Origin: Trichoplax sp. H2
Lineage: Eukaryota
Assembly: GCA_003344405.1 (NCBI GenBank)
Contig: NOWV01000149.1
Span: 1-64,000 of the forward strand
Reading direction: 5' to 3'
DNA length: 64,000 nucleotides
The notes under the pieces are model-generated. The model saw nothing but the letters and a program-made list of their open reading frames with translations, was not told the DNA's origin and made no database searches. Of the stretch, positions 1 to 64,000 are shown piece by piece. Within the stretch, counting starts at the first letter, position 1, and each line of letters begins with the position of its first letter. A program made the position numbers and the translations under genes.

Positions 1-2945
1 GTATTTTACGTTAAACACTAAGTTGGATAATTCTTCTTTATTTCACGATATACTGCATTTATATACTGTTCCTCAATAGTTCATGAGTCATAGTTAATAC
101 AATTAACCTCGGAATCATTTACTGAATTAAATATTAATTTTAGCTACTGCTCCCTTAATGCAGACAACAGTATTTACGAACATAGACATATAATGACTAA
201 TACAGAATAGTCAGATTACGATATGTCCTATCACGGAACATTTCCATGATAATTTACAGTCTACCATAAGTAAATTACAATCACAATGATTCGAACTGTA
301 AGCAGATGATTTGCATTCCCTATTATAACTATTATAATTTCAGTATGTGTATAAGTGTCACTGTCATAAAAAATCAGTGCTATATTAAAATACAGTATAT
401 CCAAATTAGAAGTTAACTAAATAAGGATAGTCTAACAGAATTATCCTAACATAGTTATTTCTACTGTAATACAGTATTTAACACTGTAACAAGTGGCAAG
501 ATAAATCGTTCACGAATGTTATAAAAGGATGGTGAAAGACATTCCAATTCTAACCATATATTAAGGTAAAAATATTTCAGATACGGTAGCTAATCGTGGC
601 TCTATAGTAAATCCTAAACTAAAATCGCTTTAAATAGTAAGTATTAGATTAATCAACTAGGGAATAATGAAAGAAAATTTCTTTAGTGGTCCTCAGATTA
701 ACTTCTTATAACTGCATCGATTGATTTCGTCAGTTAAAATGACAATACACAATAAAATTGAAAATGATCTAATTGCTATAGAATTTGATCTGACTTTTAG
801 TTCTTATAGATGCGATACGAAATATTTAATATGATGATATAAAATAAAATTCTAAATGATCTAAATATTGGAGAAAGTGGTTCGATTTTTAATTGCTATT
901 GATGAAATATAGAATATTTAGGCTTCAGTAAATATATTCGGTAGCAATTTATAAATTAACGTATTTTATGGTTTCTTGTTGAAAAAAACGAAGACGAAAC
1001 CTTGAAATTAAAGCTTAACTATGCAACTAGAAGACTAAATAGAATTTCGATCATCTTGGTCTTCCAAATTCTTTATAATTCTACAAATAGTCATAGAAAT
1101 TAAACTTGTAAATAATCTAAGTATATAGCAATGCCATTATTGATGCCCATGGCAAAGGATCTAAATAAAATGTTAAGATAGGGCTAATTCTAGAGTAGAT
1201 ATCAAATATAAATAATTAATACCAGAATGCATTGTCATAAATACTATTAGGATATAGTTAATTTTCAAAGTTAAACTGCTGAATACAAAATTGTGGAATA
1301 ACAATCGTCTGCCAGTAATTCACTTATTTGTACCGTGAAACTGCATATTGAAGTCATAGTTTATCGAATATAAACTACTTAGCTAATCATGAAATCCAGA
1401 TGCTTAGAACAGAATAGATGCTATCCTATTTTTCCAATACATGATGTAATACTTAAATATCAATTATCGTTATGAAAGTGCCATAACAAGTGCAATAAAT
1501 TTTATCAGCTGCTAATACAACACCGCATCACGAAAGATTTAATTGTAGCATTGCCTAAGTGCATGTTCTAAATACGAACTACTAGTATTATGCATTAATT
1601 CAGTTTGAATGATTTTACTACAAGTTTAAAAACAATTGTCATCCAGAATGTAATGTTGTTACGTATACTATAGGCTGCAGAGATATAACTTTAAACACTA
1701 AAGTTAGACTAATTTTGCACATCTTCACCATATGAATACGGTCCACTACATGTTTTTCATGAGTGATACGCAATAATTATATCTATCATTTGTTATGACA
1801 CCCAAGTAGCTATATTATTGTGCCTATGGCAACTAGCCTTCTAATCTTTCAAGAAATATTTCAATATTGAATATGATTAGAATCAATATTAGGGAATCGT
1901 TGTCATCAACATATAGCAAAATACGAGTAGTGTAGGCTGTAAACAAATTAATAAAAGAAATTTTGAAACATAACGTCCAGTAACCCATTAATCGTACTAT
2001 TTGTCTGCTACTAATAGTTTGTGTGAAAGGAATAGAAAACTACCTGAAACAAGTATGCATAGAAATTAGTAGGAGCGATTTACTTTCAGTTAATTCTAAA
2101 AAAACTAGTTGGAGTACTTGTCTTCGTGATTTAGAAATAATTGTCATTCCATAACCACTCTAGTAATATGCTAACCATTAAATAGCGGTAAACACTTTTA
2201 CATATGATCTCAAAATTCAACGTCAAAGGCTACCCGAGACTACGTCTGCTATAATAATCTTTGATCATGTTTTAGAAAATCGCCCATTATAAGCTATAGA
2301 GTAGCTAACTAATTACTTCTCGCCCATTGTTAGCGTGTCAATTACTTACTTATATTTCTATAGAGCATTATTATGTCCTTTAATCATGTTCTATTTAGCA
2401 ATTTGCATGATGAAACCTTTGTGAAGAAGATAAAGCCTTAGATACTATTATTGCCTTGGCCTTTGTCATTGTTGTGTAAAATGCTATTTATTTGCCGTTT
2501 ACGTCAAAATCTTTCTAACATCTTCGATTGTATTGACATACGAGACTTACACGCTATTCTAGCGTTAGCCTTGCCTTTAGTCCCATTAGATAAATTACTG
2601 GACGCGTAAATTAAGATTTATATAGCCCGCTGCGAGCTTTACAATTGTTGTAGACCCCAAGATATCTAATTTCAAACAACTAGCAAATACACAACTATTC
2701 ATAGCGATTTCTTAAAAGTAGAGAATAACATAACCTAAATACATCAAAATTCAAGAAAACAACAACATTTAACTTTGGCAACCATATTATAATTCTAGGC
2801 AAACATAAAATTACAAGATCAAAACTACCTGTTGTACTTTAACGGCAAATAGGCTACTTCACGACTTTGTTACGCTATTCCCCTCACTACTGATCATGCT
2901 AACAATCAAAAAAGATCGTAACACAAAATAATAACTACGTGTAAA

Positions 2946-3938
2946 ATGACGACAAAGTTTATTTATCCCGTGGACAAAACGATTATTTGGAGTACAATCA
3001 GTGGGATCACCATTTTAACCAACTCGTATATGTTAATCTTAATATGTCGGAAAAATAGATTATGGTCGTCGATTAACGCCATCTTGGCAAGCATGTTTAC
3101 TGCTGGTATATTATTTGGATCTATCTATTTAATACCTAGATTTGCCTATGGAAATTTGATGGAATTAGGTTCATTTTGCCACCTCGTAATCTCGTTTGGT
3201 CAAGCATTAAGTGTCATTTTTATGTTACATCAGTGTTTAGTATGTCTAGACCGTTATTTGGCAGTTCTTTCCCCACTTAAATATCGTCTATATACTGACA
3301 ATAAAATCGTAATTACGGTTGTCTTATTGATCTGGTTACTAGCTTTTACTGGTGCTTCTATTCCATTAATGACATTTAGCCCAATTCAAGGACCAATTTG
3401 TAATCTAACAACGCAACATGTGGAGGCTGAAACAGTATTTTTATTTACGTTGTTGGGTGCATTATTTTTTCTACCTTTACTGGTTATATTGATAACTTAC
3501 GCTCACATTATTCATATTTTTAACCATCGTGATCCTTTAGTTTTACCTGTACATCAAAATAGTACAAAATTAAGCTTCTTACAGAAAAATCGTAAACTAG
3601 TAATGAATGTTGCTATTATAACATCAGTATTAATTGTAATGTGGTGCCCTTATGTTACAATTGTTTTAATATATAGGGTTAAAACAAGCTATTCTCCTTT
3701 TGAACTGACAGTTATAAACATTGTTCAGTATTTCGCTTTCAGTTATCCTGCAGTATCGCCACTACTTTATGCCTATAACATGAAGAGTTTAAGACGGGAA
3801 GTTATTAAAGATTACAACGCTTTCTGTTGCAACAGACAACGTCGACGAGTGCATACTGAATTATCAATACGTCAGTCCAATATATCTAATGTTAATCATA
3901 CAAATTTAGCGAGAAAGTTTCCTCCAGAATTAGATTAA
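2946..3938 (+). CDS. Class A (rhodopsin-like) orphan GPCR, 330 aa, intronless CDS
   Basis: Seven hydrophobic segments; TM1 Asn (LTN), TM3 Cys, CLDRYLAV..PLKYR, TM4 IW, TM5 FFLP..I..Y, TM6 WCPY, TM7 YPAVSPLLY (NPxxY variant), helix 8 LRRE. Confidence 0.93.
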   Translation: MTTKFIYPVDKTIIWSTISGITILTNSYMLILICRKNRLWSSINAILASMFTAGILFGSIYLIPRFAYGNLMELGSFCHLVISFGQALSVIFMLHQCLVCLDRYLAVLSPLKYRLYTDNKIVITVVLLIWLLAFTGASIPLMTFSPIQGPICNLTTQHVEAETVFLFTLLGALFFLPLLVILITYAHIIHIFNHRDPLVLPVHQNSTKLSFLQKNRKLVMNVAIITSVLIVMWCPYVTIVLIYRVKTSYSPFELTVINIVQYFAFSYPAVSPLLYAYNMKSLRREVIKDYNAFCCNRQRRRVHTELSIRQSNISNVNHTNLARKFPPELD

Positions 3939-6900
3939 CTGATTTTTAGTATTTACTGTAACAAAATGTTACAATCTCATCATTATAAATTTTATTACGT
4001 AAAGGTTATTAAAAAAATTGAAAGATTAAGATGTAAGACATCAATAACTCTTGTTATTTTCAGCAGTTGGTCTCCATTTTATCCTTGATTTAAACTTATA
4101 AATTAAATTAATTGTACCTTTACGTTCGTAATAACTCAATTGTTTAATTACAATGCTAAAAGAGCAATAGCCATTTTTAACATAGAATGTATTAAATCAC
4201 GGTTGAAGCATCATATCATATCATTATCTCTTTGCGTGTAAAAATTTATGTTACAATTTTTCTTCTAATTTCCACTTTCATGAGCGAAATATTTATGATT
4301 CATTATTAAAATTCGACTATATCATGGTGATTACTCAGAATGATCAGAAAATAATTTTAAGTAGAGGATACTTGATATGACTGAAAACTGTGTAGAGCGT
4401 AATACCACGAGAACAAAGCCTTACTTGTCGCTATCTTACGTTGCGATCAATTAGATTAAGAGGAATTTGCCACTTTTAATAAGTTATTGTAGTAACTACT
4501 ATATTAACAAGGATTCTTATACGAGTATTTACCATTTACAGGTATTTATCACTGTTTTATTAATCTCAATCTTATTCTAGATTATTCAGGATAATGATGA
4601 TTTAATAAATGATTCATTAAGACATAAGATAGTATAGCACATATATCGAAGCATGATCAAAATTTCTTCGCACTTTAATGTATCAGATAGCTATATGCTA
4701 TAAGATTTTCTATATTATTTAGCAAGCTAGGCTTAGCATAAAAAATTGAAAATAGTTATTTATTCTTATTTTAATTACATATTTACTTATACACTATCCA
4801 AACAGTCATATACATGCAGATATACTAGCATACATATGTTAGAATGACAATAAGAAAACCAATTAGTTTGCTAACTTATAAAACCTAACAGTGAATTTGC
4901 AAAAGCACTTCCAATACCGTACAAATGATCAACTAATTAATCGTATAACTGTAGGATCTTTTAAACAAAAAATTCAAGAAAATAGTAAAAGATACACGAT
5001 ATCAAATTGTCACTTATCTCGACTACAAAATAGCAGTAGTTGTTAAGAGTACCTCTACAAGCCTTGATTAATTATTTATAATAAGCTGTAAGCGCTAATA
5101 CAGAAATATTAGGAGCTATTTACAGCTCTAAAATTAATTTTATCCATAATATTGGCAATATATGAGCTGACTATAGCGCTCTGTAATAAGCTTGCTTCAT
5201 TACAGAAATTGCATTTGAAGACGCTAATGCTAGTTATAGAAAAACTAGATTTTAATTTTAGGTTTCTAATAGTTAACCGCAATTTACGTAGAAAATTGTT
5301 TTAAGTGCTATAGTTTCGTCTGTCGTGAATATACTAAAAAACTAATTGCGTATTTACACATAGTAATAGTTCTTATAATATTTACTCACATTCAAATTAA
5401 ATTAGCAAAAAAGTCTGCTAATTTTATGTGGTTAATCGAAATAGTATGGTTTTATATGCTGGGCATATTTCTAACTCTACATTTTTGGTCCAATTGAAGT
5501 TTTAATAGCCTCGATATGATTTAAAAAAGTATTATTTTGCCTATTAAAAATTATGAAAAACAGGCTGCGATAGCATTATCAATGGCAGCGTAAAGGTCGT
5601 ATGTTTCAGCAGCAGCTGGAAAATCCATAATACTTAGAACCCGAATCCAGCAATAAGGAAATTTCTTCTTATTGGATCATTTCCTTTTGCTTTTTCAAGG
5701 GCAATCAGGTTTCACTCTCTGATTCTAATTGTATAATTGGCAAGATATAGCTGTGTAGCTGGAAAGCATTCAGTAATTAATTGTTTATAAATTGTAAATT
5801 TTGCTGTCATAATTAAGATTATCAGGTTGTTAGATTGTCAGGATAGACATTGATAGAGGTGAGATGAACCAAACTTATGCAATATAGTGAAATGTACGCG
5901 AAACTGTAGTTCTTGTTATATTTATGAAAAGATACTTTATTATAAGTAGTGAGATAAGTCAAGCTATCATAAATATGAAGTGCCGCACTGTAATAAGAAC
6001 TCAAAGAAGAATATTCGAGGCCTAATAAGTGCTTTTAATACGACGTCGAACGAGTAACTGATTCTTAATTTGAAATTCATTAGAAAAAATATAAACAGAA
6101 TGCAGTAGCGGAATCGATAGAAAATAACCATAAATTAGGATTTTGGGAAAACATTTCAAAGCTTTATCCGCAATTATGTAGAGTGATTAAGCAATTTCTT
6201 TTGATATAATTAAAAATGTCTTTAAATTTAATTTCGTTAACTTTTTCAGAATGTAATTTTGCAGCAAAAGCTTACATTGCGTAAATAGTAAGGTATGAAT
6301 AACGAAATACTAGATATCATAAAATATCAAAGAAATATCTTACTAGAAGCAAATTTACAATTTATATTGATTAAGGATACAAGAAGATTATTACTGAATT
6401 TCAAACATAGATAGTAACTAACACATATTTTTATGAAACAATCCGAAAATAGTAATAGCGTCTAGGTACTAATTTTTTGTTATGGAAGTCAAATTTTTTG
6501 CATTGGATATAATTAGTACGTAAAAATAATTAGATCAAATCAAGTCTATCATTTGAGATTGACTTCGTAGTCAGAAATATAAATCGGCTGCTCCTAACTT
6601 AATCGCTTACGCTCAACGATTGCTTATACTTTCGTTTCATTATCTTGAATAAAATTGCAGTCTCAAACTGAATTAAGAAAGTTAAGTACATAGTCTAAAT
6701 TAACGTTTTGAGTGCAATTCTTTCCAAGAATAATACTAATAATAAAAATGTCCTTGACCTATTTAATGAAACTGTTCTCGCATACATATTTCAGTGGCCA
6801 TTAAAGGATATTAATAAGCTCTAAAATAAGCTTGTTTTAATTAACAGAGCATAAACAATTCTAGGTAGGTAATAGAAAACCATATCAACAGCTTTCAGTA

Positions 6901-50411: not shown

Positions 50412-51566
50412 ATGCAAGTTGTTGTTAAATCGCAATCAGGAAATTTACTGTTGCTCCAAGGTGAAGCCAACGATACTGTTCGTGATTTAAAGGAGAAGTT
50501 ATATTATCATGTACATAATCCGCCATCACAACAACGTCTAATCTATCGTGGTAAACAACTTGATGACGAAAAATTATTAACATCTTATTCTATTGCCAAT
50601 AATGCTTTAATTCGCTATTTACCAGTATCAAAGGAAGAAATTCGATTGAATTGCAACCTGTTTACGGGGCAGTTTCTATCGCTCAATGTTGAGTTAGATC
50701 AAAGCATTTGTCATGTTAAAGAACTGTTACATCAACAAACTAATATTCCTATGGAAAAACAACGATTACTATTAGCTAATAAGCAATTGAAAGATACGGA
50801 AACATTACGTTGTTATGGAATGCAAGAAAATGATACTATCAACATGGTATTGAAATTACCTCGTCGTATACCTTTACATATTAAAATGAATCATGATAAA
50901 ACTATAACTATTGAAATCGAATCGAATAGTACTGTCGCTGACATTAAAGAAGTGGTGTTTATTAATAATAATATGCCGCCAAATAAACAACGTTTAACGT
51001 ATAACGGGAAAGTCATGCTGGATTCAACAACAGTCGATGACTATGGTCTTAAAAATTATGATACTATCTACATGATACACCGTCGGAAATCACGAAATCA
51101 AGCCGTTATTGTTCAAATGGAAAATGATCAGACTTTAAGTGTACCAGCTAAAGAAGATTCTACCATTCAAGAAATTAAACATTTAATTGAAGAACAAACA
51201 AACATACCTTGGCGTCAACAACGATTATTACATGATGACGTTCTACTTAATAATTCCTCGACATTAGCTGATTGTCAACTGCAATTGCCTTGTCAATTGC
51301 AATTATTTTCATCAGATATCTTGCAGATTTATATACGACTTTCAGTGGGTAAGCAATTGTCACTGGAAGTCTTAGAAATGGATAAAATTTATGATATTAA
51401 AGGTAGGATTGAAGATAAAGAAGGCATATCTATTTTACAGCAAACATTACGATTTAAAGGTAAAATTTTGAAAGATCAAACCACTCTAAAGTCTTGTGAT
51501 ATCGGTAGTGGGTCTATTCTGCAACTTAAAATTAATGTAGATGATCGAAATTGTTGTGTTATGTGA
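50412..51566 (+). CDS. Penta-ubiquitin-like-domain protein, 384 aa, no Gly-Gly, C-terminal CCVM (CaaX/CCaX)
   Basis: Five ~75-aa units with ubiquitin-fold signatures (QQRLIYRGKQLDD, KQRLLLANKQLKD, KQRLTYNGKVMLD, QQRLLHDDVLLNN, QQTLRFKGKILKD; IKGRIEDKEGI); intronless; ends DRNCCVM*. Confidence 0.92.
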   Translation: MQVVVKSQSGNLLLLQGEANDTVRDLKEKLYYHVHNPPSQQRLIYRGKQLDDEKLLTSYSIANNALIRYLPVSKEEIRLNCNLFTGQFLSLNVELDQSICHVKELLHQQTNIPMEKQRLLLANKQLKDTETLRCYGMQENDTINMVLKLPRRIPLHIKMNHDKTITIEIESNSTVADIKEVVFINNNMPPNKQRLTYNGKVMLDSTTVDDYGLKNYDTIYMIHRRKSRNQAVIVQMENDQTLSVPAKEDSTIQEIKHLIEEQTNIPWRQQRLLHDDVLLNNSSTLADCQLQLPCQLQLFSSDILQIYIRLSVGKQLSLEVLEMDKIYDIKGRIEDKEGISILQQTLRFKGKILKDQTTLKSCDIGSGSILQLKINVDDRNCCVM

Positions 51567-52610: not shown

Positions 52611-55430
52611 TATAGTTCCAGTTATTTGCCTACGGCTAAGGGAATAATGATCGGTGTACGCGCCTGTTTTGCTAGATATGGGGTATAACTCGCTTGCAGG
52701 CTAATTCCAATCGGGCTCTAAACAACATTTATTGATATTGCATTTTCCTGCTTTTCGTCTATAGAAGTTAAGCTAATTGGAAATACGAGTTCATGGTAAT
52801 CCATTTGAAATAATGGCTAACAACGTCTGCTGTAATCTTCAATTTTACACATATTTACTTAAAATATGTAAGTAGCACCTGATTACGATTTTATTTTGCC
52901 ATAGCTGATATTGACTTGTTCCAATCAAGTTTTAGCTATTGCGGCACTATCCACTCATATTATGACCAGCCACAATGATTAAGTGTAATCTTTATTTACC
53001 TTTGTAAGATATACATTCTACGTATGATATCGATTATTTTGCGTGAATGTTTTTAAATGAAGGCCATGCCCATAATTTGATTCATAGCCGCATGATATCT
53101 GAATAATTATGATTGAGTAAATGGATTGTAGTTCAGAGCGATTATCTAATGTGCCTTATAACATTTACTTCTTTTCTCATCTCTTTTTTTAAAGAAGAAT
53201 TGACGGGTAGCATTAGCTTCGTTCTTTATACTATTCTTGATTGACATTATTAGCTAGTGGCTCCGATATGAAGCGCCGAGATCTTTTCTTAGTTCACATT
53301 TTCATCGTTCTAGTAAAGTAAATTCCTCCTGTTACAACATTTCTCCACCTCATTTATTGTCACTTTTCTAGTTCGAGTAGGTGGGTGTTACAAATTGGTT
53401 TTGTAACAAGAAAAGAGTTAATTAAACTAATTTTACGGTTTTATCATTAATTACCTCCAATTCTAGGGTACGTTAGTCAATCATTTTAATAGTTCACGAT
53501 CATAGCTTTTATATTCATGTAAGGATTGCACAACAGCAAAGTAGGTTATACTAGTCGTCCACTCGGGAGACGACAGCTCACGAAAAATGTTGCAAACAGG
53601 ACCTTAGTTAACGCTAGTCTATTTCTTTAAATTACTTAATATATATATATACAGATCCCCCAGTAAGTTACAGATCAATGCTTAGTATATCATATCGGTA
53701 AAGTATAGTCGTAACAGTGGGTTGTCATCAACAGGTTTAATATCCAAGTGATTAATGGTGGATAGAGGCATAACTGTCCACTTTTGTGATTGGTATACAG
53801 CATATTAAGCCTGTACACAATACTGTACATTGGCTCGCTGATGATTCAATAATGTATTAATAAGAACATTGATTTATTCAGCGTCCTTCTTTACCCAGCA
53901 GTTATTTTGAATTCAATACTGTAGTTTTTCAATATTTTTTTTTTTAATCAGGGTTGAGGTTGATCAAGCGGTTACATTTACAGCCTACCTACGTGTATAC
54001 TAGGGGTGTTTACTATCGAGTTAGGACTCAAGCTGATCTCTAAATTTCAGCAATGTTCCAGGTGATTTAACCTCACTACTGCATGCGTATGTCATTGCTT
54101 TATCTCATGGATTTAGGCGCCTTGTGAAATGGACTTCGTGGCATGATTCTTTTCTTTAACCGGCCATCTAGGTTAGGATGCAAAGGCATGTCCACATGTG
54201 TCCAACACTGGACGCACTAGCGTGCCATTAGGGCAGATGTCCTATTGATATCGAGGACTTGTGATGAGGGTAACAGCTGGAAGAATACAATGCTAGTCAC
54301 CCATCAATATTTTTACACCTTGTTATCATGGATGGATAAGATGCACCTTCATCTCTTCTACAGTATAGACACGATCGAGGTCAATAGAACCATAGAAATG
54401 GCTAGAAATATGCAAACGTTGCTGTTGTCCTTTGCAATGAAGAAAAACATTTGCCACCCATCTTGACAATGGATAGGCGATCCTGCTGTGCTGACGTGGT
54501 GATGGAATCGATGATGCAGAAAAGGGACAAGCTCGTTGGGTTTCTTTTAGCTCTATGAATAGAATACACGTAGTAGAAAGTAGCATGTGTCATGGAAACA
54601 CTGTGGAGTTTTCTCTCTCCTCTGGTGTATGATATTGCAAATTCTAAGTCTGAAAGATGAGTGCATACATCATTGCATATACACTGTTCTTCGACCTAAA
54701 TTTAACGGACGAATGTATGATTTAGCGGTATTTTGATGGACCCATACCGTTCTTTACATCGAGGTAAGAGATTTTTCTTCCCTCGAAGACTATCTCAGGC
54801 TGTTGATTTGGATACTATGCCGTCGAAAATGACTGCGGCTCTCATGGCTCATACTCAACCATGTTGACAGCGATTTGTTCTTGAAGAGTATTTCTCTTCC
54901 AGCAGAATGACTACTATAGTACGCTACTGCATACCGTACCGTACTAGAGTGGTTGATCACATCGTTATTGAACAGTATCTTCTAGGCCACCGTACTTACC
55001 TCTAATCTCGATGCATTTCCATTCAAGAAATCGTAGATCTCCATACTCCAACTACTCCATTGGCCGTCCATTAAGGAGGCCATGGATTTATTTAGTTTAT
55101 AAACTAGCCATGTTGCCATTTTTATTTTTGGAGATGAGGTCATGCTTGACCGCTGGTACGGTACCAGCGACAGGGTACGATACGGAAACGCGGACAGGCA
55201 GACTGCAATGAACCAGTAATGAGGATGATGATACAGCCCAGCGAGTCTGATACTGTGACTATCATGCGAATGATTGATGCTGGTACTAGCGGCTCCGTGT
55301 ACAGTATAAAGTACTGTAAACTGGATACTGTAATGACAGTACTATGTATCGATACTGTCCCGGTCCCGGTCCGGACTAATCGAGTCCCTAGACTTGGCCG
55401 GAGCGATTACTTCTTCCAATCTAGCGCAAA

Positions 55431-58400
55431 ATGGCTGACAAATATCAATACGATTGGCGCCAGGATAAGTCGTTATTCCAGGCTCCAGGTAATGAAATGA
55501 TAATTATAGTTAGCGTGTTTGATAGGCAATACAATGTCCATCTCGGTTCGAGTAGAGTGTATGCATGTTTTAGACTTGACATGGTTTGATTATAAGGTGG
55601 AGTGGATAGTCCTTCGACTCCGTTTGGACAACAACAACAACAATTAGGCTTGACCGTAGTAAAACAGATAGAAAAGAGGGCCTAGCGTTCAAGAATCATC
55701 ATTCTAGGACAATTTATTCTTCGATTGCTATCACAGTGATCGATCAACTCCATTATACGATATAGTAGACATCAAATAAGGCACTAGGATTCACTATCGA
55801 TGGCGATAAATGAAAGTAATCATGTTCATCAGTAGGGCACCAAGAGTGCTTTTACCTTACGCAAGTAGGATCGGTACTTACTATCGAGTCGACTTATTGA
55901 CAACCCAACTAGGATAGAGTTGTCTACCCACTGGAAAGCGTAGACTTACTAAACTGGCAGCTTATAACTTAAAATGTCCATCTACCCATGTTGTAGCTCA
56001 ATCCATACGAGTGGAAATGAGAATAGAATAAACAACAACTTGCGACCACGTCATCACACTATCACAGTGCTATCCAAATCTCTCTTGAAAAATGGCATCA
56101 ACTATGCAATTAGACCCAATAGTGAAGCCCATGGAATGGCCCTCTCCATGGAATTGCCTAGATAGAAATTCATCAACGTCAACGCTGTATGCCTACATTA
56201 TGTTGTTTAGCTTTTACTCTCCCCACAATCCGGCCCCAAATCCATTCTCAGCCCTGCTGCATTAAGCATGTGAAATGGCAATGATTATTATTTTCCATTT
56301 CCTTCAACTTGTTCTCCATGACCGATTGCTTTCCTTTCATGATTATATAATAAGGCAAGGTTGAACACTTGAAATGATTTCCTTTTACTTCCATGTCCTT
56401 CCTAAAGTAAAGGGACCTTTGTGAAGGTTGTTAGAGTCATGATTCATTTAAAATTGATCATCATGTCTGATTTATTGTATCAATGGAATTTAAAACTGTC
56501 CAAGACCGTCAAGCGAGAGAAAGTAAAACATGCTGTTTTCCTTTCTGTCAGTTTATCCGATCAGTTTGCTTCGGATTTACCCATTTCATCGATCCTTATT
56601 TCTCTCCCATTTTATCAAATGTTTTACTGTTAAAATATCAATCAAGAGACTTTCAAGTTGAAGTGCATTCTCCGTATATAACGTTCACTGTGTAATACAA
56701 TCTCCATCAACTTATATTTGATGTTCCCTCTTTCAGTCACTACTTCCGATAGTGCTCACTGGTATGATGTAGCACCAAACCTAACGGATACCGCAAAGGA
56801 GATCAGCACGGAACATAGACTAGCCGACATGATGGGCCAGGAAAGAGAACAACAGACACGTTTACAAGCTGATGAAGCATTATTGAAAAAATTTGAACTC
56901 GAGAAGCAAGTCAGGTGTGTAGAAATGTTGACCCACCAGTCAATGGTAGTTTACATTCCTCTTGGAAGCTACCTTTCAGAATGAAATAAATATTTTATTA
57001 CTTCTCGTTAACACTATTATTTAGAGAACGCCGAATCGACCACATACAAACTGAAATTGATACGGAGATAAGGTAACTATTGAATAAATTGACGTAAGAA
57101 TGGATAAATCCAGTCGTTTGACCATAATGCTTCTTACCAAAGTGACCTTGTGATTTCAACTATCTGGTCTCATCGATACAGTCTATGCCGTAGTTATTGA
57201 ATACTGTCAACTGCAAAAAATTTTAGAATAGTCTCATTATACGATCTGGCTTGTGATTAAAATGATACAGAAAGTAGCGTAATAATCATGATTAAAACTT
57301 ATGTAAATATTAATAAGTAACAGAGTACACCATGTTCGATTGTAGTCTAGCCTGAAAAACGATATCGTCATAAGTGATTGTAATGATTTAAGCTAATTAC
57401 AGTAGTTATGTCTAAGAGTTAAGAACCCATACACAATCCTGATAAACGGTTTAGGGTACAGAAATTGGGCCATCCCAAATAATTATAACATCTTTTAAAT
57501 TACAGGAGTTTTAATGAAAAATCCGATAAAGATGTCGAGGAATGGATAAAATCGCGCTATGTTGAAGCCGATGCGGCTGCATCTAGATATGCTTCTAAAA
57601 CTGAAAGTAAGAACTTTGTTAGTTGATTCAAGTTTCTTTTCTAGAAGTTACATCATAGCTTAATGCACTACGACTTAAATGGTACACACAAAACTCGGTA
57701 CATTTTAATATGTGATGTTGAATGTGCTACAATAGGTCAAGGAATGCGAGAGAAAGAGAATGGTTAGTATTCAATTAGAGTATTTTATGATACACTTTGT
57801 AAAGTAATATCACCATTGCTGGGAAACTTTTAAATTAGTACTGAATGCTTTTTGTAAAATTGTTTCATTACATATTTAATGAATACCACTTTCTCATTTT
57901 CTTATCATGTACTAGCAAAAATAGCAGAGTCATCCTCTTCTGAAGTAGTGAATGCTCCTTCTGCACCACCTTCATGTATGTGTTTTGGGAGTATAATTTG
58001 AATTGACGTTCGATATCATAATGCAATACTTTAACCTTAGATTCTGAAATTGAATTCGAAAGTCTTGTTGCAAAAAGCCATTATCCAGTCGAATTTCAGT
58101 CCCATAAGTCAATTGAGGTAACATAGCAGGCGTAGCATCATGAGAGCTATGCGTTAATCCTTTTCGTAATAGAAGCTAGTTACAGTACATAGATTTGATT
58201 TTAAAATATGGCAACAAACTTGTTTTCTTTAGGGACAATATGCTGCTTCTATACGGTTGCGCCCATTAAATCCTGACGCGGATAATCTGTAAGATATTCA
58301 AGTTATATTCTTTGAGATAAATGATAAAAACTTGTGATTACAACTGGCTAGTACTGGCATGTATAATAATTGATTTATTTTATTTTATTTCTTGCTTGTA

Positions 58401-59882
58401 TTCGGTACCGTTAGTTGTTGGAAATGTTACTCTCAGATTGAAGACAAGGCTGCTTGCGAAGATGCCGAAGGCAATATTTTGCACCAAGATTGCTACTTTG
58501 ACATAAAATGTAAGTATTGAGATTTTTTGTATAGACTGTAATTACTAATAGCATGTATATTTGCAATTAGTGGCCTATAGTATGTAACAGTACGAATTGA
58601 AATGAACGGTTTGGTATATATATATTCCTTGATGAAGTAGATTCTTTATAACTCTCAATATTTATATTGCTATCGTAGTTCCCAAGTGCGATTGGTGCTT
58701 TTACAAAATAAGTCCTGCGGAAGATAAGGTTCGACTTATACTATTAATAACATTTTTAGCTTATCGAGAACAAATTTAAAACAGTTATTATTAATTGCAT
58801 TGAATTAAGGAAGAAGGAGTGAACTTAAACTTTGTTATTTGTAAAAAAGAAGACGAGTATTGCACTTTTCTCAAATGATTGTAAATTATCGCTAGGTAAC
58901 AAGTGCTCATCCGTGCATTTTATAAATATTTTTCAGTCTTCATTATTTAGGCCCTCTGACTATACGATAATGTACAATGCGGAACTGTTAAATAAGATCA
59001 TAAAAAAAGCTATGATTACTTTTCATCAGGACCGATAACCTTTTCGCGAATTGAGATCTACCAGCATAGTTTATCGTCAGACCTTTTGTAGTTACTGTAA
59101 CTCGTATACAAGTGGGAACGCAACATTACTCTTTTCGTATTTTCAACCTACTATGAAGTAACTAGTTTTAATTACCCAGTGACTGACCCTAGTTACGGTA
59201 AAGGAATGACCACAACATAAAAATTATTATCCTTGAGTTACTGTACTGTATACATGTTAATAACAATCTGTCGGAGCTCATAGTAATGTTATGTATCAGC
59301 AATATTCCTTAGAATCTGTACTGCAATCATTTCAATTGGGATCTTACGTACACACTAATTGAAACATTTTATTTCTTGATAAATTTTGAAGAAAATTTCG
59401 GGATTTTGGTGCAAATTCGAAGGTAAAAGATATCATCGAGAATGCTATGAGAAATATTCAGGTCCAAGGTCGGTTAGAAGTTAATTTATTACTTTCTAAA
59501 TCCTTATCACCCTAACTAGTAATAATTGTGTCGACATGATTTATTTATTTAATTCCGCCTTCAATGGGCTGTATGCGTTATCATTATGATTATGGTTATT
59601 GTCAGAGGCTATTTTCTTGCTGATGAAATGTATTGTAAAAATTAGGTGTACCGTTTGTTTCGATGTCATTATTACAAGACCTACTCAGGATTTCTGTGGC
59701 AAATTTATTCAAAACAATGATAAGGTATTGCCTGATTTGAAAACCTACCGTAAATTTTATATTGAAAACATTTGGATTGATATGTAAATTCTAATGCATT
59801 ATCAATATGTATTTTTAAGCTCTATCATTTGGAATGCTACAAGAAAAGAAAGCTAGCAGAATTGAAAGCACGCCGAAGTTAG
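55431..59882 (+). CDS. 322-aa protein with N-terminal coiled coil and three tandem CxxC-x18/24-HxxC zinc fingers (LIM-related). Exons 55431-55488, 56737-56914, 57025-57072, 57506-57606, 57736-57762, 57916-57975, 58041-58117, 58233-58288, 58415-58509, 58679-58728, 59392-59468, 59646-59724, 59820-59882
   Basis: 13 exons with GT-AG junctions totalling 969 nt, open from ATG (aaaATGG) to TAG. C-terminus reads CWKC..GNILHQDCYFDIKFPKCDWC..FEGKRYHRECYEKYSGPRCTVC..NDKLYHLECYKKRK. Confidence 0.85.
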
Positions 59883-61628
59883 AAACGGAAGCTCGATTAT
59901 TATAAAGGGATTATCATACCTATAGCAACAATTTGCTGATGTACTATACGTTATCACGGAGGAATATTACTTTCTTGCCATCATTTAGATATTGTGCCCA
60001 TGGTACAAACAAACAGTATTACTCGGGGCTGTAATAATATTGATTATGATTGATTATTTTCAATTTAGCATCAGTGATTGATCCTATTATAATTTATTAT
60101 TTCTAGTTGGCGCTACGCGTCGATATCATTGCTGTTGAGTCGAAAATATAAAACTGGGAACCTGTAAATTTTAGTTCATTGAAAAACTTCTAGCCTCTCA
60201 CTATTGTAAACTTGAGAATAAAGATTTATGCGTGTGCTAGTATGTATCCATAGTAGTGATTTTAGAGTGTAGTTACTGTAGCTAATTTCGATATGATAAC
60301 GTAGTATTGTTGAATACAGTTGTCATTTCTTCTATCGTGTAATATACTTGGACCAATGACCTTGCATTTTAATTCAATGATGAATCCACTTTTTATGAGT
60401 ATATAAGACTCTTGCTGGTCGACAATAGTAATAACATTGTAAGGCTAGCGCCTATCATCATGCTCTGTATAACTTTCATTTGTAATTATGGATAGGAAAT
60501 AATATATGAGTAGTCAGACTACAGTTTTTTAACTTAATTTTAATGGAATAAAAAATTTAGAATAAGTTGAGCTGTTTGCGTTGGTTTCGGGAAGGCATGC
60601 ACAATTGAATTCTCCTGTCCTGGCAAAATTTTTTATATTAATGGTGGAAATTTGAACTTTATTAAAGCATACGAACCTACTTTAAGTGATCGTTCCCCTC
60701 TCGTAACTATACAATACTGAATTAATAATATTTAGCTGTAGTAATGTTGCATCTGCTTACGTGTCTTTAAGTCCAATTAATACACATAGGATCAAATAAC
60801 TATTAGCTATCGTGTTATAAGCGTTTGTCTGATAGTTCAAAGTGTGTAGCTCAATGCATCCATTACCCATTTCCTAATAATTGTTTTATGAATAAACGTG
60901 CTAATACGAAGGCGCTGGCTTGTGTCAACAGGTAATTTTATTACTACAGTATAACTCTACTGTACTGCTTGTCGTTGCTGATTGTGTTGGCAGCCATTAA
61001 CTGTAAGTTTAAGCTTAACACATAACAGCTTTGCAAGATCCAAGATCTAATGATCATTAGCTTTGCTACTCACAAAGCTATATACTTTACAGTACTTCCA
61101 AAAGCAACTACTACAACAGTGTTTTCCTGTCAGCATACAGAAACTACAGCTAGCTTGATAAATAAATACCTAAAATGATTCTGTAGAGAAATCAACTACT
61201 TCCCAAATTATATCAAGGTAGCGTGGAATAAATCGTATCCAGAGGATATGGTTTAATGGCCATTTTAACAGCGAACCATCACTGGAAACAGTTTAAACTA
61301 GCTATCGATAAAGATGCCATCAGGTGGTTTTGATGGACTTGGCTAAATGGCTCACTTTGCATTAAATTATGCAAATTAAGAACTGTATAAAAACAAGTCT
61401 ATAGTGTTATACTATACCGCTAGATATTATAGCATAGGGATAATACTGTTTAATAACAGGCTGTGATAACTTGTAATAACACTAAGTAATGTATTTATAT
61501 ATCATACTGGATTCAGATTTAGTTATAGCCAGTAGCAAAGTAATCTAGCATCGGCGGACTTGATCGCTTACAATTTTACTGTGTTTACTCATTTTAGAAC
61601 TACATTGATTTCATTTTGCTAGCCGAAA

Positions 61629-62681
61629 ATGATGAAAGCTGCACAAGTTGTAGAGGCAGGTGCCCCTCTCCAACTTCAAGAAGTCCCACTGCCTAAAGCC
61701 ACTCATGATGAGGTTGTGATCAAAGTGATTTCTGTAGGCGTTTGCCATAGTGATCTGCACTTATGGGATGGTGGTTACGATCTTGGTGAAAAAGGATTCA
61801 TGAAATTCGTAGAGAGAGGAGGCCATTATCCAGTAACCCCTGGCCATGAAATTGTTGGTAGTGTCCATCAGATGGGTGATGAAGTAGTTGATTTTGCTGT
61901 TGGGGATAATGTTCTTGTATTCCCTTGGATTGGTTGTGGTCAATGCCCGATTTGTCAAGCGGGCGATGACAATGTTTGCGATAAACCGAGATCGATTGGC
62001 ATTTTTTGCAATGGTGGTTATGCTGAATATGTTATTATTCCAAGTTATAAATATCTTGCTAAGATTTCTGGTGTCGATTTCCATGCTGCCACATCGCTTG
62101 CTTGCTCAGGTTTAACTGCCTATAATGCAATCAAGAAAGCGAATGTAAGATCTCCAGAATATTTGGTCATCATAGGTACTGGTGGGCTGGGTCTGATGGG
62201 CATTCAATTGGCGAAAGCAACAACTCAAGCGAAAATCATTTGTGTTGATATCGATGATCAAAAATTAAATATAGCAAAGAATTTAGGCGCTGATTTTATT
62301 GTTAACTCTAGCGATGGCAATGCAGTGCAGAAAATATACTCCATCTGTCCTAAAGGCGTCGATAGTGTAGTCGATTTTGTTAACGCCTCTCCGACGGCAA
62401 AGATAGGATTATCCATACTTAAGAAGCGTGGGAATTTAGTGCTTGTAGGATTATTTGGTGGTTCTATCGAAATCTCTTTAGTGACAATACCACTAAAGAC
62501 CTTAATTATTCAAGGCGCTTACACAGGTACTTATAGGGAAATGGTAGAGTTGCTACAATTGGCCAAAGAGGGGATCATTAATCCAATTATTTCGAAGCAG
62601 TATTCTTTACAAGAGGCTAATACCGCATTAAATGACTTAAAACAGAGGAAGATTGTAGGGCGAGCAGTAATCATCCCATAA
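61629..62681 (+). CDS. Zn-dependent medium-chain alcohol dehydrogenase, prokaryote-type (6-hydroxyhexanoate-dehydrogenase-like), 350 aa, intronless
   Basis: Catalytic Zn ligands in GVCHSD, PGHE and ACSGLT; structural Zn CGQCPICQAGDDNVC; Rossmann GTGGLG; acidic VDID (NAD preference); C-terminal GRAVIIP. Confidence 0.95.
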   Translation: MMKAAQVVEAGAPLQLQEVPLPKATHDEVVIKVISVGVCHSDLHLWDGGYDLGEKGFMKFVERGGHYPVTPGHEIVGSVHQMGDEVVDFAVGDNVLVFPWIGCGQCPICQAGDDNVCDKPRSIGIFCNGGYAEYVIIPSYKYLAKISGVDFHAATSLACSGLTAYNAIKKANVRSPEYLVIIGTGGLGLMGIQLAKATTQAKIICVDIDDQKLNIAKNLGADFIVNSSDGNAVQKIYSICPKGVDSVVDFVNASPTAKIGLSILKKRGNLVLVGLFGGSIEISLVTIPLKTLIIQGAYTGTYREMVELLQLAKEGIINPIISKQYSLQEANTALNDLKQRKIVGRAVIIP

Positions 62682-63218
62682 CGCTGTAACAAGTGACTTT
62701 CTTTTACCAATTGGCTATTAATCGTTGATACTTTACTTCGTCTAAAACGTTTAGCAGAGGATGATTCTGGGCTGGATGATAATCATCTTGTACTGTCTGC
62801 ATACGTAGAATTAATGATAGTGTTGCATAATGGAGTTGTCATATTATGCGGTATAAAGTCCATGTTCTCGTATTATCCTCCTCCTCCTTATATTAAGAAT
62901 ATACGTAACTACTCTCTACTGGCGTTAGTAAGGTTGCCATTTAGATACTTCAATTTTCAGTGGATAATGATTTGGGTAGTTGGTAGATGACAAATTTTAA
63001 ACCATTTCCTAAGCTTAACTAGCACAAGCTAGGTGATTCATAAATTCATGATCACTAAATTACGGTACTACAATGCTTGGCTAAGCTACTATTGCTTATT
63101 GTTACCATGTCCTATCGAAGAAATTGAGCCATATTGAAAGCGTTCTTTTACTGACAGACAAGTTTATTATATTGTACATACATATACCCTTAAATCTTGC
63201 AATTGTAATAAATCAAAA

Positions 63219-63580
63219 ATGGCAAATACCAGCATGATTATGGCATGGCAGGGATCACAGCAACAGCGAGATTATCCAATAATTATAATCTGTTCATTAT
63301 TTTTATATGTATTATTAGCTATCTTTGTCATTCTTAATTTGATTCGCTATCAATTATTGCATGCAAGAAATTTTATATGATTTCTATTTCCTAATTTGCT
63401 ACCACTAGATGATAGCAAAGCCACAACGCTATTTGTACATCCTTTTTCAATCCTAACAGTACTATGGATTCCATTTGAAGAACGGATTAATGCATACGTT
63501 GGTCTATTGCAGGATAAATTTTTATGTTGAACATATAATCTTGATATTTCTAAATTACTTATATCTGCTACAATAAATAA
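63219..63580 (+). pseudogene. Probable degraded, internally deleted class A GPCR (or a 53-aa single-TM ORF, 63219-63380)
   Basis: One frame from aaaaATGG reads MANTS..IIIICSLFLYVLLAIFVILNLIRYQLLHARNFI*FLFPNLL..SKATTLFV..ILTVLWIPF..*..LLISATIN: sequon, TM1/ICL1/TM2-like, TM6 WxPF-like and TM7-like fragments with in-frame stops. Confidence 0.4.
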
Positions 63581-64000
63581 TAATCGAACTCTGATATTAT
63601 TAAGTTAGTTTCTGTGTGATATATATAATTTACGAGATATTTCATGCCATGGACACGTACATGTAGAATCGAGTACAGACTTAAAGGCAGGATAAAAATA
63701 AATGAGTGGCAGTTACGGTAGAAGATGGAAGATTCCTTTATCCTACTCGTATAGTTAAATATTTCCGGTGAACAGTAAATGGATAAGAACTTACCTTTCT
63801 ATAGCTAGAATTAGCTGTAATTAGTTGTAAAATAATACGGTTATACTGTTGATACAACGACAATGCTGCTAAACATCACCAGCGTTTTATTAATTTCTGA
63901 TAGTCTTTCATATTGGTGTAACAGATCTGGCAAAATCATGTCTAATTTGTTGCAGCCAATTAGTTACAGGTAAGCACTGGTAAGATGTAACTATACACAA

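Follow-up and report, generated by a model that had tools for sequence, protein, structure and literature searches.

A zinc-dependent alcohol dehydrogenase gene of probable thaumarchaeal origin in the placozoan Trichoplax sp. H2

The Trichoplax gene and the closest described enzymes

The gene discussed here encodes a zinc-dependent alcohol dehydrogenase (ADH) of the medium-chain dehydrogenase/reductase (MDR) superfamily and occupies positions 61629–62681 on the + strand of a 64,000-nucleotide stretch of the Trichoplax sp. H2 genome (contig NOWV01000149.1 of assembly GCA_003344405.1), which as a whole is referred to as the window. Among described systems the ADHs of the Nitrosopumilaceae, a family of marine ammonia-oxidising archaea, are closest; they are labelled 'propanol-preferring alcohol dehydrogenase' in JGI records, and no biochemical study of them was found in the portions of the full-text literature covered by our searches. 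They match the Trichoplax protein in length (350 aa), in start position, in 16 of 19 marine signature columns (defined below), and in all zinc and NAD motifs, with 59–69% amino acid identity, whereas the Trichoplax gene is set apart by its position on an animal chromosome without adjoining scpA and scpB genes, by a longer branch, and by changes at 18 conserved positions. The NAD-dependent ADHs of Sulfolobus (structures 2eer, 1jvb and 1r37) share the fold (TM-score 0.92) and have catalytic zinc ligands that align with those of the Trichoplax protein, but have Glu98 as the first structural-zinc ligand where Trichoplax has C103, have a loop after the CHSD motif that is five residues shorter, and differ in their source, Trichoplax and the Nitrosopumilaceae being mesophilic. 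The bacterial AdhP family (NF006940) and the animal class III ADHs, or S-(hydroxymethyl)glutathione dehydrogenases (TIGR02818), belong to the same superfamily and have the same domain order, but the Trichoplax protein falls below the cutoffs of both NCBIfam models (214.9 bits against 344 for AdhP, its best NCBIfam match, and 107.1 against 543.95 for class III), which sets it apart from AdhP equivalogs and from the usual animal ADH alike.

Transfers of metabolic enzymes from prokaryotes to animals are documented, for example in ctenophores, tunicates, amphioxus and centipedes (PMC6005172, PMC13390645, PMC13350694 and PMC7864903 deal with such cases). Like these, the Trichoplax ADH is a single intronless and expressed enzyme gene that sits amid host genes and is nested in a prokaryote clade; it differs in having a thaumarchaeon as its probable donor and a placozoan as recipient. 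We consider it probable that the gene was acquired horizontally from a Nitrosopumilaceae archaeon, or a very close relative of one, and now resides in the placozoan nuclear genome; both the direction of transfer and the donor family are those to which sequence comparisons point. A domesticated archaeal acquisition had been proposed in a preliminary description made from the letters of the window, and the proposal is supported by the best matches, the identity gradient, the maximum likelihood (ML) tree, the signature columns and the archaeal synteny, as well as by the evidence for integration and the RNA contigs. The ADH is a new case of a known phenomenon, the prokaryote-to-animal transfer of a metabolic enzyme, with a notable archaeal donor and placozoan recipient.

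The reading frame is intronless, begins with ATG, and continues for 350 codons with zero internal stops before its stop codon. An in-frame TAG at 61620–61622 lies two codons 5′ of the ATG, and the archaeal orthologues start at the same position in a 16-sequence alignment (A1). The catalytic GroES-like domain (residues 27–145; 61707–62063, + strand) is recognized by Pfam ADH_N with 95.7 bits (E-value 2.3e-27, cutoff 23.5), and the Rossmann NAD(H)-binding domain (residues 186–313; 62184–62567, + strand) by Pfam ADH_zinc_N with 91.3 bits (6.3e-26, cutoff 31.8), the latter being preceded by the glycine motif G183-x-G185-G186-x-G188. These GxGxxG glycines and D207, at the end of strand beta-2, are invariant in A1, as are the catalytic zinc ligands C39, H73, E74 and C159, the last of which lies just past the GroES-like domain, and C103, C106, C109 and C117, the predicted ligands of a structural zinc. 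The intact, single-exon MDR ADH that the preliminary description had read at these positions is therefore borne out by the frame, the Pfam domains, and the zinc and NAD motifs.

The nearest solved structures are the ADHs of S. tokodaii (2eer, 289 bits) and S. solfataricus (1jvb, 284 bits). An AlphaFold model built on an alignment and used for the comparison with solved structures (pLDDT 90.8, pTM 0.89) superposes on both with the TM-score given above, a root-mean-square deviation of about 2 Å and 40–41% identity. The eight zinc ligands align with C38/H68/E69/C154 and E98/C101/C104/C112 of chain 2eer_A, which we take to be the residues with zinc-ligand roles in the Sulfolobus enzyme. The preliminary description had also pointed to several stretches as closely resembling Nitrosopumilus-type ADHs, and this part of the claim stands, in that YPVTPGHEI, ATSLACSGLTAY, DSVVDFVNA.PT, KRGNLVLVGLFGGSIE.SLVTIPLK and IQGAYTG are all found in the Trichoplax protein and are common to the Nitrosopumilus and Nitrosarchaeum proteins in A1. 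The loop after CHSD, which had been given the same weight, is not specific to Nitrosopumilus, as it is entirely or mostly present in soil thaumarchaeal relatives, in bacterial relatives, and in the Sulfolobus ADHs.

The protein is apparently a functional enzyme, with activity, cofactor preference and cytosolic location predicted from its sequence and model. The product would most likely be a cytosolic, NAD(H)-dependent zinc enzyme like Sulfolobus ADH, acting as an oxidoreductase on alcohols and aldehydes, in which the catalytic zinc held by C39, H73, E74 and C159 would polarise the substrate oxygen, hydride would pass to NAD+ in the Rossmann domain, D207 should favour NAD over NADP, and the Cys4 structural zinc would prop the oligomerisation lobe. 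The animal could possibly benefit through the handling of alcohols and aldehydes released from digested microbial films. We think it very unlikely that the gene is instead a transcribed relic, integrated and read but no longer specifying an enzyme. The long terminal branch would fit such a relic, as would the residues that differ in the Trichoplax protein at 18 positions with at least 95% conservation in the marine archaeal clade, five of which lie within the loop at residues 55–65; against it stand a 350-codon frame that remains open at a genomic GC content of about 30%, the retention of all eight zinc ligands, the glycine motif and D207, a confident ADH-like model, and the identity of the protein with its T. 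adhaerens copy, with zero amino acid differences over 338 aligned residues.

Relationships to archaeal genes

An overview of the relatives of the ADH was obtained by searching 5.8 billion clustered proteins, and the 120 matches listed are strongly patterned. One is from T. adhaerens, and the other 119 are 65–69% identical to the ADH and nearly all 350 aa long; eight of the 119 carry an organism name, with six from Nitrosopumilus, one from Nitrosarchaeum and one from a metagenome-assembled genome (MAG) named 'Desulfobacterales'. The resemblance to Nitrosopumilus-type enzymes, which the preliminary description had pointed out and proposed to check by best matches, is thereby supported. A GTDB set of prokaryotes with one genome per species yielded a relative encoded in 584 of 587 matched stretches, from which the best 80 loci were kept, and identity to the ADH declines in steps among them. 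Those of the Nitrosopumilaceae or marine group I (L001–L020) are 59–67% identical, as is, at 62%, a locus from a 'Binatia' MAG (L050); L021–L039 and L048, mostly from Nitrososphaeraceae and Nitrosotalea but including a second paralogue in two Nitrosopumilaceae, are 46–53% identical; and the remaining 40 loci of L040–L080 (without L048 and L050) are from bacteria, mainly Alphaproteobacteria, at 41–46%. Mean identities are 65.4% for 26 marine rows, 49.8% for 14 soil-type rows, and 43.5% for 10 bacterial rows.

An exhaustive search of 1.84 billion representatives of 50%-identity clusters was also made, and the nearest 150 were compared with the prokaryote rows. None of these 150 that is more than 50% identical to the ADH lies closer to it than to the prokaryote rows, and just three representatives are closer to the ADH, all of them about 36–38% identical. 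No second eukaryotic carrier is present among the 120 matches listed or the nearest 150 representatives. Viral contigs contain six MDR relatives, all of them distant at 26–29% identity, and no viral carrier is indicated.

Three candidates for carriers outside the archaea and placozoans were set aside. P0124, a sequence with a long branch that could have been a second eukaryotic copy, groups with Nitrosopelagicus (93/94; supports are given as ultrafast bootstrap/SH-aLRT) and derives from short metagenome contigs. In the locus labelled 'Candidatus Binatia' (L050:2607–5050) the ADH gene is adjoined by Nitrosopumilus-like scpA and scpB genes (73–80% identity), and the label is probably a binning error attached to an archaeal contig. 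The 'Desulfobacterales' sequence (P0044) sits among the Nitrosopumilus rows in both of the trees described below, and is probably encoded by an archaeal contig that was mis-binned in a public MAG.

The position of the ADH was examined with two trees. The first was a quick tree of 75 rows, comprising the ADH, 53 of the 80 loci, 15 of the 119 metagenome matches, and six of the 150 representatives, and places the ADH within a 38-row clade (99% SH-aLRT) that includes all 16 main-copy rows labelled Nitrosopumilaceae. The second was a more careful ML tree of 52 of these rows over 350 columns (LG+C20+F+G4 with PMSF), in which the thaumarchaeal rows together with the ADH are separated from the bacteria at 100/99, the marine (Nitrosopumilaceae) clade together with the ADH is supported at 94/93, and two deeper nestings are supported at 89/89 and 79/78. 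Nesting within the archaea had been named in advance as the phylogenetic support to look for, and the careful tree provides it. Signature columns, defined as those in which a residue occurs in 80% or more of one group and in no more than 15% of every other group, give the same picture: the ADH has 16 of 19 marine signatures, 0 of 5 soil signatures and 1 of 9 bacterial signatures, while the undoubted Nitrosopumilaceae rows have 13–19 of the 19 marine columns and the soil rows 0–3.

The genomic neighbourhood of the archaeal genes bears on the direction of transfer. In loci such as those of Nitrosopumilus (L003) and Nitrosopelagicus (L020), the ADH gene is divergently oriented beside scpA, scpB, and the genes for ribosomal protein S8e, SRP19 and TFB. 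The scpA-scpB pair is upstream of the ADH gene in all 20 marine loci, mostly with S8e, SRP19 and TFB too, and the order TFB, SRP19, S8e, scpB, scpA, ADH is kept in Nitrosopumilus, Nitrosarchaeum, Nitrosotenuis, Nitrosomaritimum and Nitrosopelagicus (about positions 550–5050 of each locus). The pair is beside the ADH gene in none of the soil loci L021–L039, nor in the Trichoplax window. No clue to ADH function comes from these neighbours, which are housekeeping genes encoded on the other strand. Because the neighbourhood is fixed throughout the family, and because soil relatives form the next clade out, the ADH has a long vertical history in the archaea; the lone animal copy thus appears to be the newcomer, which points to archaea as the source. 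An ancient eukaryotic gene that was lost from all other sampled eukaryotes, or a transfer from placozoans to archaea, is a highly improbable account. An unrooted gene tree alone cannot formally decide between these directions, but the absence of any other eukaryote among the 120 matches listed and the nearest representatives, the 20 of 20 Nitrosopumilaceae loci in a fixed housekeeping setting, and a next outer clade made up of soil thaumarchaeal relatives all speak against both of its forms.

Some Nitrosopumilus and Nitrosarchaeum genomes contain a second ADH (L037 and L039) that is 46–47% identical to the Trichoplax protein. It clusters with L028, a sequence from the Nitrososphaeraceae (100/98), and is a separate paralogue or the product of transfer within the archaea.

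The placozoan locus and its transcription

The ADH gene is integrated among animal genes. The window around it contains four rhodopsin-type G protein-coupled receptor (GPCR) open reading frames (ORFs), an OATP exon, and a polyubiquitin gene, and immediately upstream is a spliced animal gene of 13 exons (55485–60511, + strand) whose 12 GT..AG introns are confirmed by joints in RNA contigs of runs X19 and X20, in agreement with the 13 exons predicted in the preliminary description. The RNA contig of this gene ends at 60511, 1.1 kb before the ADH ATG, and the two genes are separated by an AT-rich intergenic spacer (60512–61628) that is covered by DNA runs X3 and X4 and in which RNA depth is zero in the 60680–61681 bins. 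The absence of operon neighbours, which had also been remarked on from the letters of the window, holds: a tblastx search of 57000–64000, with the ADH masked, against the 80 prokaryote loci gave 0 matches, and a tblastn search of the window with six archaeal neighbour proteins gave none. The flanks of the ADH show no repeats or mobile-element marks above short chance-level matches, and an Rfam scan of 54000–64000 found no family.

Linkage was examined by comparing the 54000–64000 interval with four public runs, two of DNA (X3 and X4) and two of RNA (X19 and X20). In X3, which is from a different study and a second organism label (B), a single contig of 25,480 nt spans the entire interval with 49 differing letters and seven gaps, and in X4 a single contig of 8,589 nt covers 54600–63188. 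The gene is therefore in the same context under both organism labels (A and B), whose sequences differ at about 0.5% of nucleotides across the 10 kb. Because an independent contig of the second label spans the ADH and its neighbours, the gene is not contamination, and the chimeric junction with contaminant DNA that the preliminary description had named as its refutation is contradicted by both assemblies. We accordingly regard it as scarcely credible that the ADH of a co-living archaeon has been mistakenly joined to animal DNA. Such an error might be suspected from the intronless frame and from a GC content of 0.41 against about 0.32 in the flanks, and placozoans are kept in surroundings where marine ammonia-oxidising archaea are common; but the X3 and X4 contigs (25.5 and 8.6 kb) run through the ADH into both flanks, a 2.4-Mb scaffold carries the T. 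adhaerens copy, no archaeal neighbour genes accompany the gene, the protein is at least 31% diverged from every archaeal sequence among the matches listed, and RNA contigs continue from the ORF into animal-specific flank.

The T. adhaerens copy also reveals an error in its gene model. The reference protein XP_002115526 (338 aa) agrees with the Trichoplax sp. H2 ADH at all residues aligned in A1, and lacks only the first M and the 11 residues GEKGFMKFVER, whose 33 nt are at 61785–61817 (+ strand) in the window. This loop is kept in all of the archaeal orthologues in A1, and since an RNA contig (X20 record 13) is colinear across it, the omission is an annotation error and the 33 nt are real coding sequence; the XP_002115526 model thus appears to excise a false 33-nt intron. 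The full 350-aa sequence is recorded identically on a eukaryotic contig of 187,851 nt.

The ADH is transcribed. In X19, record 5 is colinear with the window over 61814–63151 (1344 nt, with six differing letters and zero gaps), and in X20, record 13 is colinear over 61787–62456, again with zero gaps; both contigs are unspliced and at least 99.5% like the window. Spliced contigs of the upstream gene are present in both runs, and so the runs contain mRNA, while both have zero depth in the 60680–61681 bins. The acceptor-like sites just before the ATG, taken in the preliminary description as a hint of a 5′UTR intron, find no support in the RNA contigs, which cover none of 60680–61786 and show no joint near the ATG. 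Beyond the stop codon the longer contig continues for 470 nt into sequence specific to placozoans, and the segment that is continuous with the ORF (62682–63151, + strand) is the likely 3′ untranslated region. Because the contigs enter placozoan-specific flank, and because the archaeal orthologues are only 66–72% identical to the ADH in DNA, the source of this RNA is the animal locus rather than an archaeon present in the sample. The probable course of events is that a single archaeal gene came to lie between animal genes by insertion, its neighbours not being carried along, that it would have retained its archaeal start and length and gained no intron in the covered part, and that it would now be transcribed as its own unit.

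Donor, significance and other features of the window

Several points weigh against an origin from a Nitrosopumilaceae donor, or qualify it. First, the best NCBIfam model, AdhP, is not reached at its cutoff. Secondly, the immediate sister of the ADH in the careful tree is supported at just 15/8, and the terminal branch of the ADH is 0.53 in length compared to a median of 0.19. Thirdly, and as the chief reservation, approximately unbiased (AU) tests do not reject trees that keep the 27 marine rows (delta lnL 13.3, p 0.103) or all 41 thaumarchaeal rows (delta lnL 14.5, p 0.115) together and leave the ADH out of the group. Fourthly, base composition and codon usage cannot tell host from donor, because both are AT-rich: third-position GC is 0.33 in the ADH, 0.23–0.35 in host ORFs and 0.15–0.50 in archaeal orthologues, and correlations of relative synonymous codon usage are 0.69 between the ADH and host ORFs, 0.75 between the ADH and archaeal orthologues, and 0.72 between host and archaea. 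Lastly, the placozoan sampling consists of two closely related labels, which bears on the age of the transfer, and the RNA evidence consists of strand-less contigs from two runs of a single study, starting at 61787.

The AU results in particular leave room for a transfer that was not direct, with the gene coming from an unsampled stem lineage of the thaumarchaeal ADH clade, or through a microbial or eukaryotic intermediary. This we judge unlikely. The poorly supported sister within the clade, and the nearest archaeal protein among the matches listed being only 69% identical, are in keeping with it; but the ADH has as many marine signature columns as true members of the family, the marine clade is supported at 94/93 with the ADH inside it, neither the matches listed from the 5.8 billion clustered proteins nor the nearest 150 of the 1.84 billion representatives include an intermediate sequence, and the six viral-contig relatives are far too distant, at 26–29% identity, to fill that place. 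A Nitrosopumilaceae archaeon, or a very close relative, is thus the donor that we favour.

Neither the ADH gene nor any thaumarchaeal donor to an animal was reported in the full-text literature searched, the supplementary tables of horizontal gene transfer (HGT) surveys being outside its scope. In the portions of text available, the amphioxus HGT paper (PMC13350694) treats a different gene, a paper on bacterial DNA in Trichoplax (PMC3641634) makes no mention of dehydrogenases, and HGT in placozoans is not a subject of the Hoilungia genome paper (PMC6067683).

Adoption of an archaeal gene by an animal is a rare event, of which the Trichoplax ADH is a likely case. To our knowledge, very few archaea-to-animal transfers are well supported, and little work has been done on horizontal transfer in placozoans. 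The evidence at this locus is unusually clean, with linkage in independent assemblies, transcription, synteny in the donor clade, and no other eukaryotic carrier among the matches listed, and it provides a concrete and easily testable example of an archaeal metabolic enzyme in an animal. It also indicates the ammonia-oxidising archaea of grazed microbial films as a source of genes for placozoans, and corrects the reference T. adhaerens gene model by restoring 11 dropped residues of a conserved loop. We speculate that placozoans might live, or once have lived, in close association with ammonia-oxidising archaea, much as sponges do with their thaumarchaeal symbionts, and that the ADH might be a genomic trace of it, one of several archaeal genes that the animal has kept. 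We rate this as quite doubtful, but if true, a set of domesticated thaumarchaeal genes would be documented for an animal phylum for the first time, in Placozoa.

Other features of the window are of the animal genome. The four GPCR ORFs are intronless, of the rhodopsin family, and 330–355 aa in length; they are in tandem between 2946 and 21491, all on the + strand with a spacing of about 6 kb, and look like a local gene-family expansion. The polyubiquitin ORF at 50412–51566 (+ strand) contains five ubiquitin repeats. One intron of the upstream gene of 13 exons contains a repeat about 40 nt long (57367–57411) that recurs in many unrelated contigs of all four runs. The depth in X3 climbs there from 32 to 249 and that in X4 from 100 to 650, suggesting that the repeat is dispersed in the genome. 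At the left end of the same gene, RNA contigs of both X19 and X20 are colinear with the window at 55459–56801, a region of 38–42% GC, across a 1248-nt stretch that other contigs splice out (joint 55485–56734). Intron retention, an alternative first exon, or a transcript nested in the gene could account for it.

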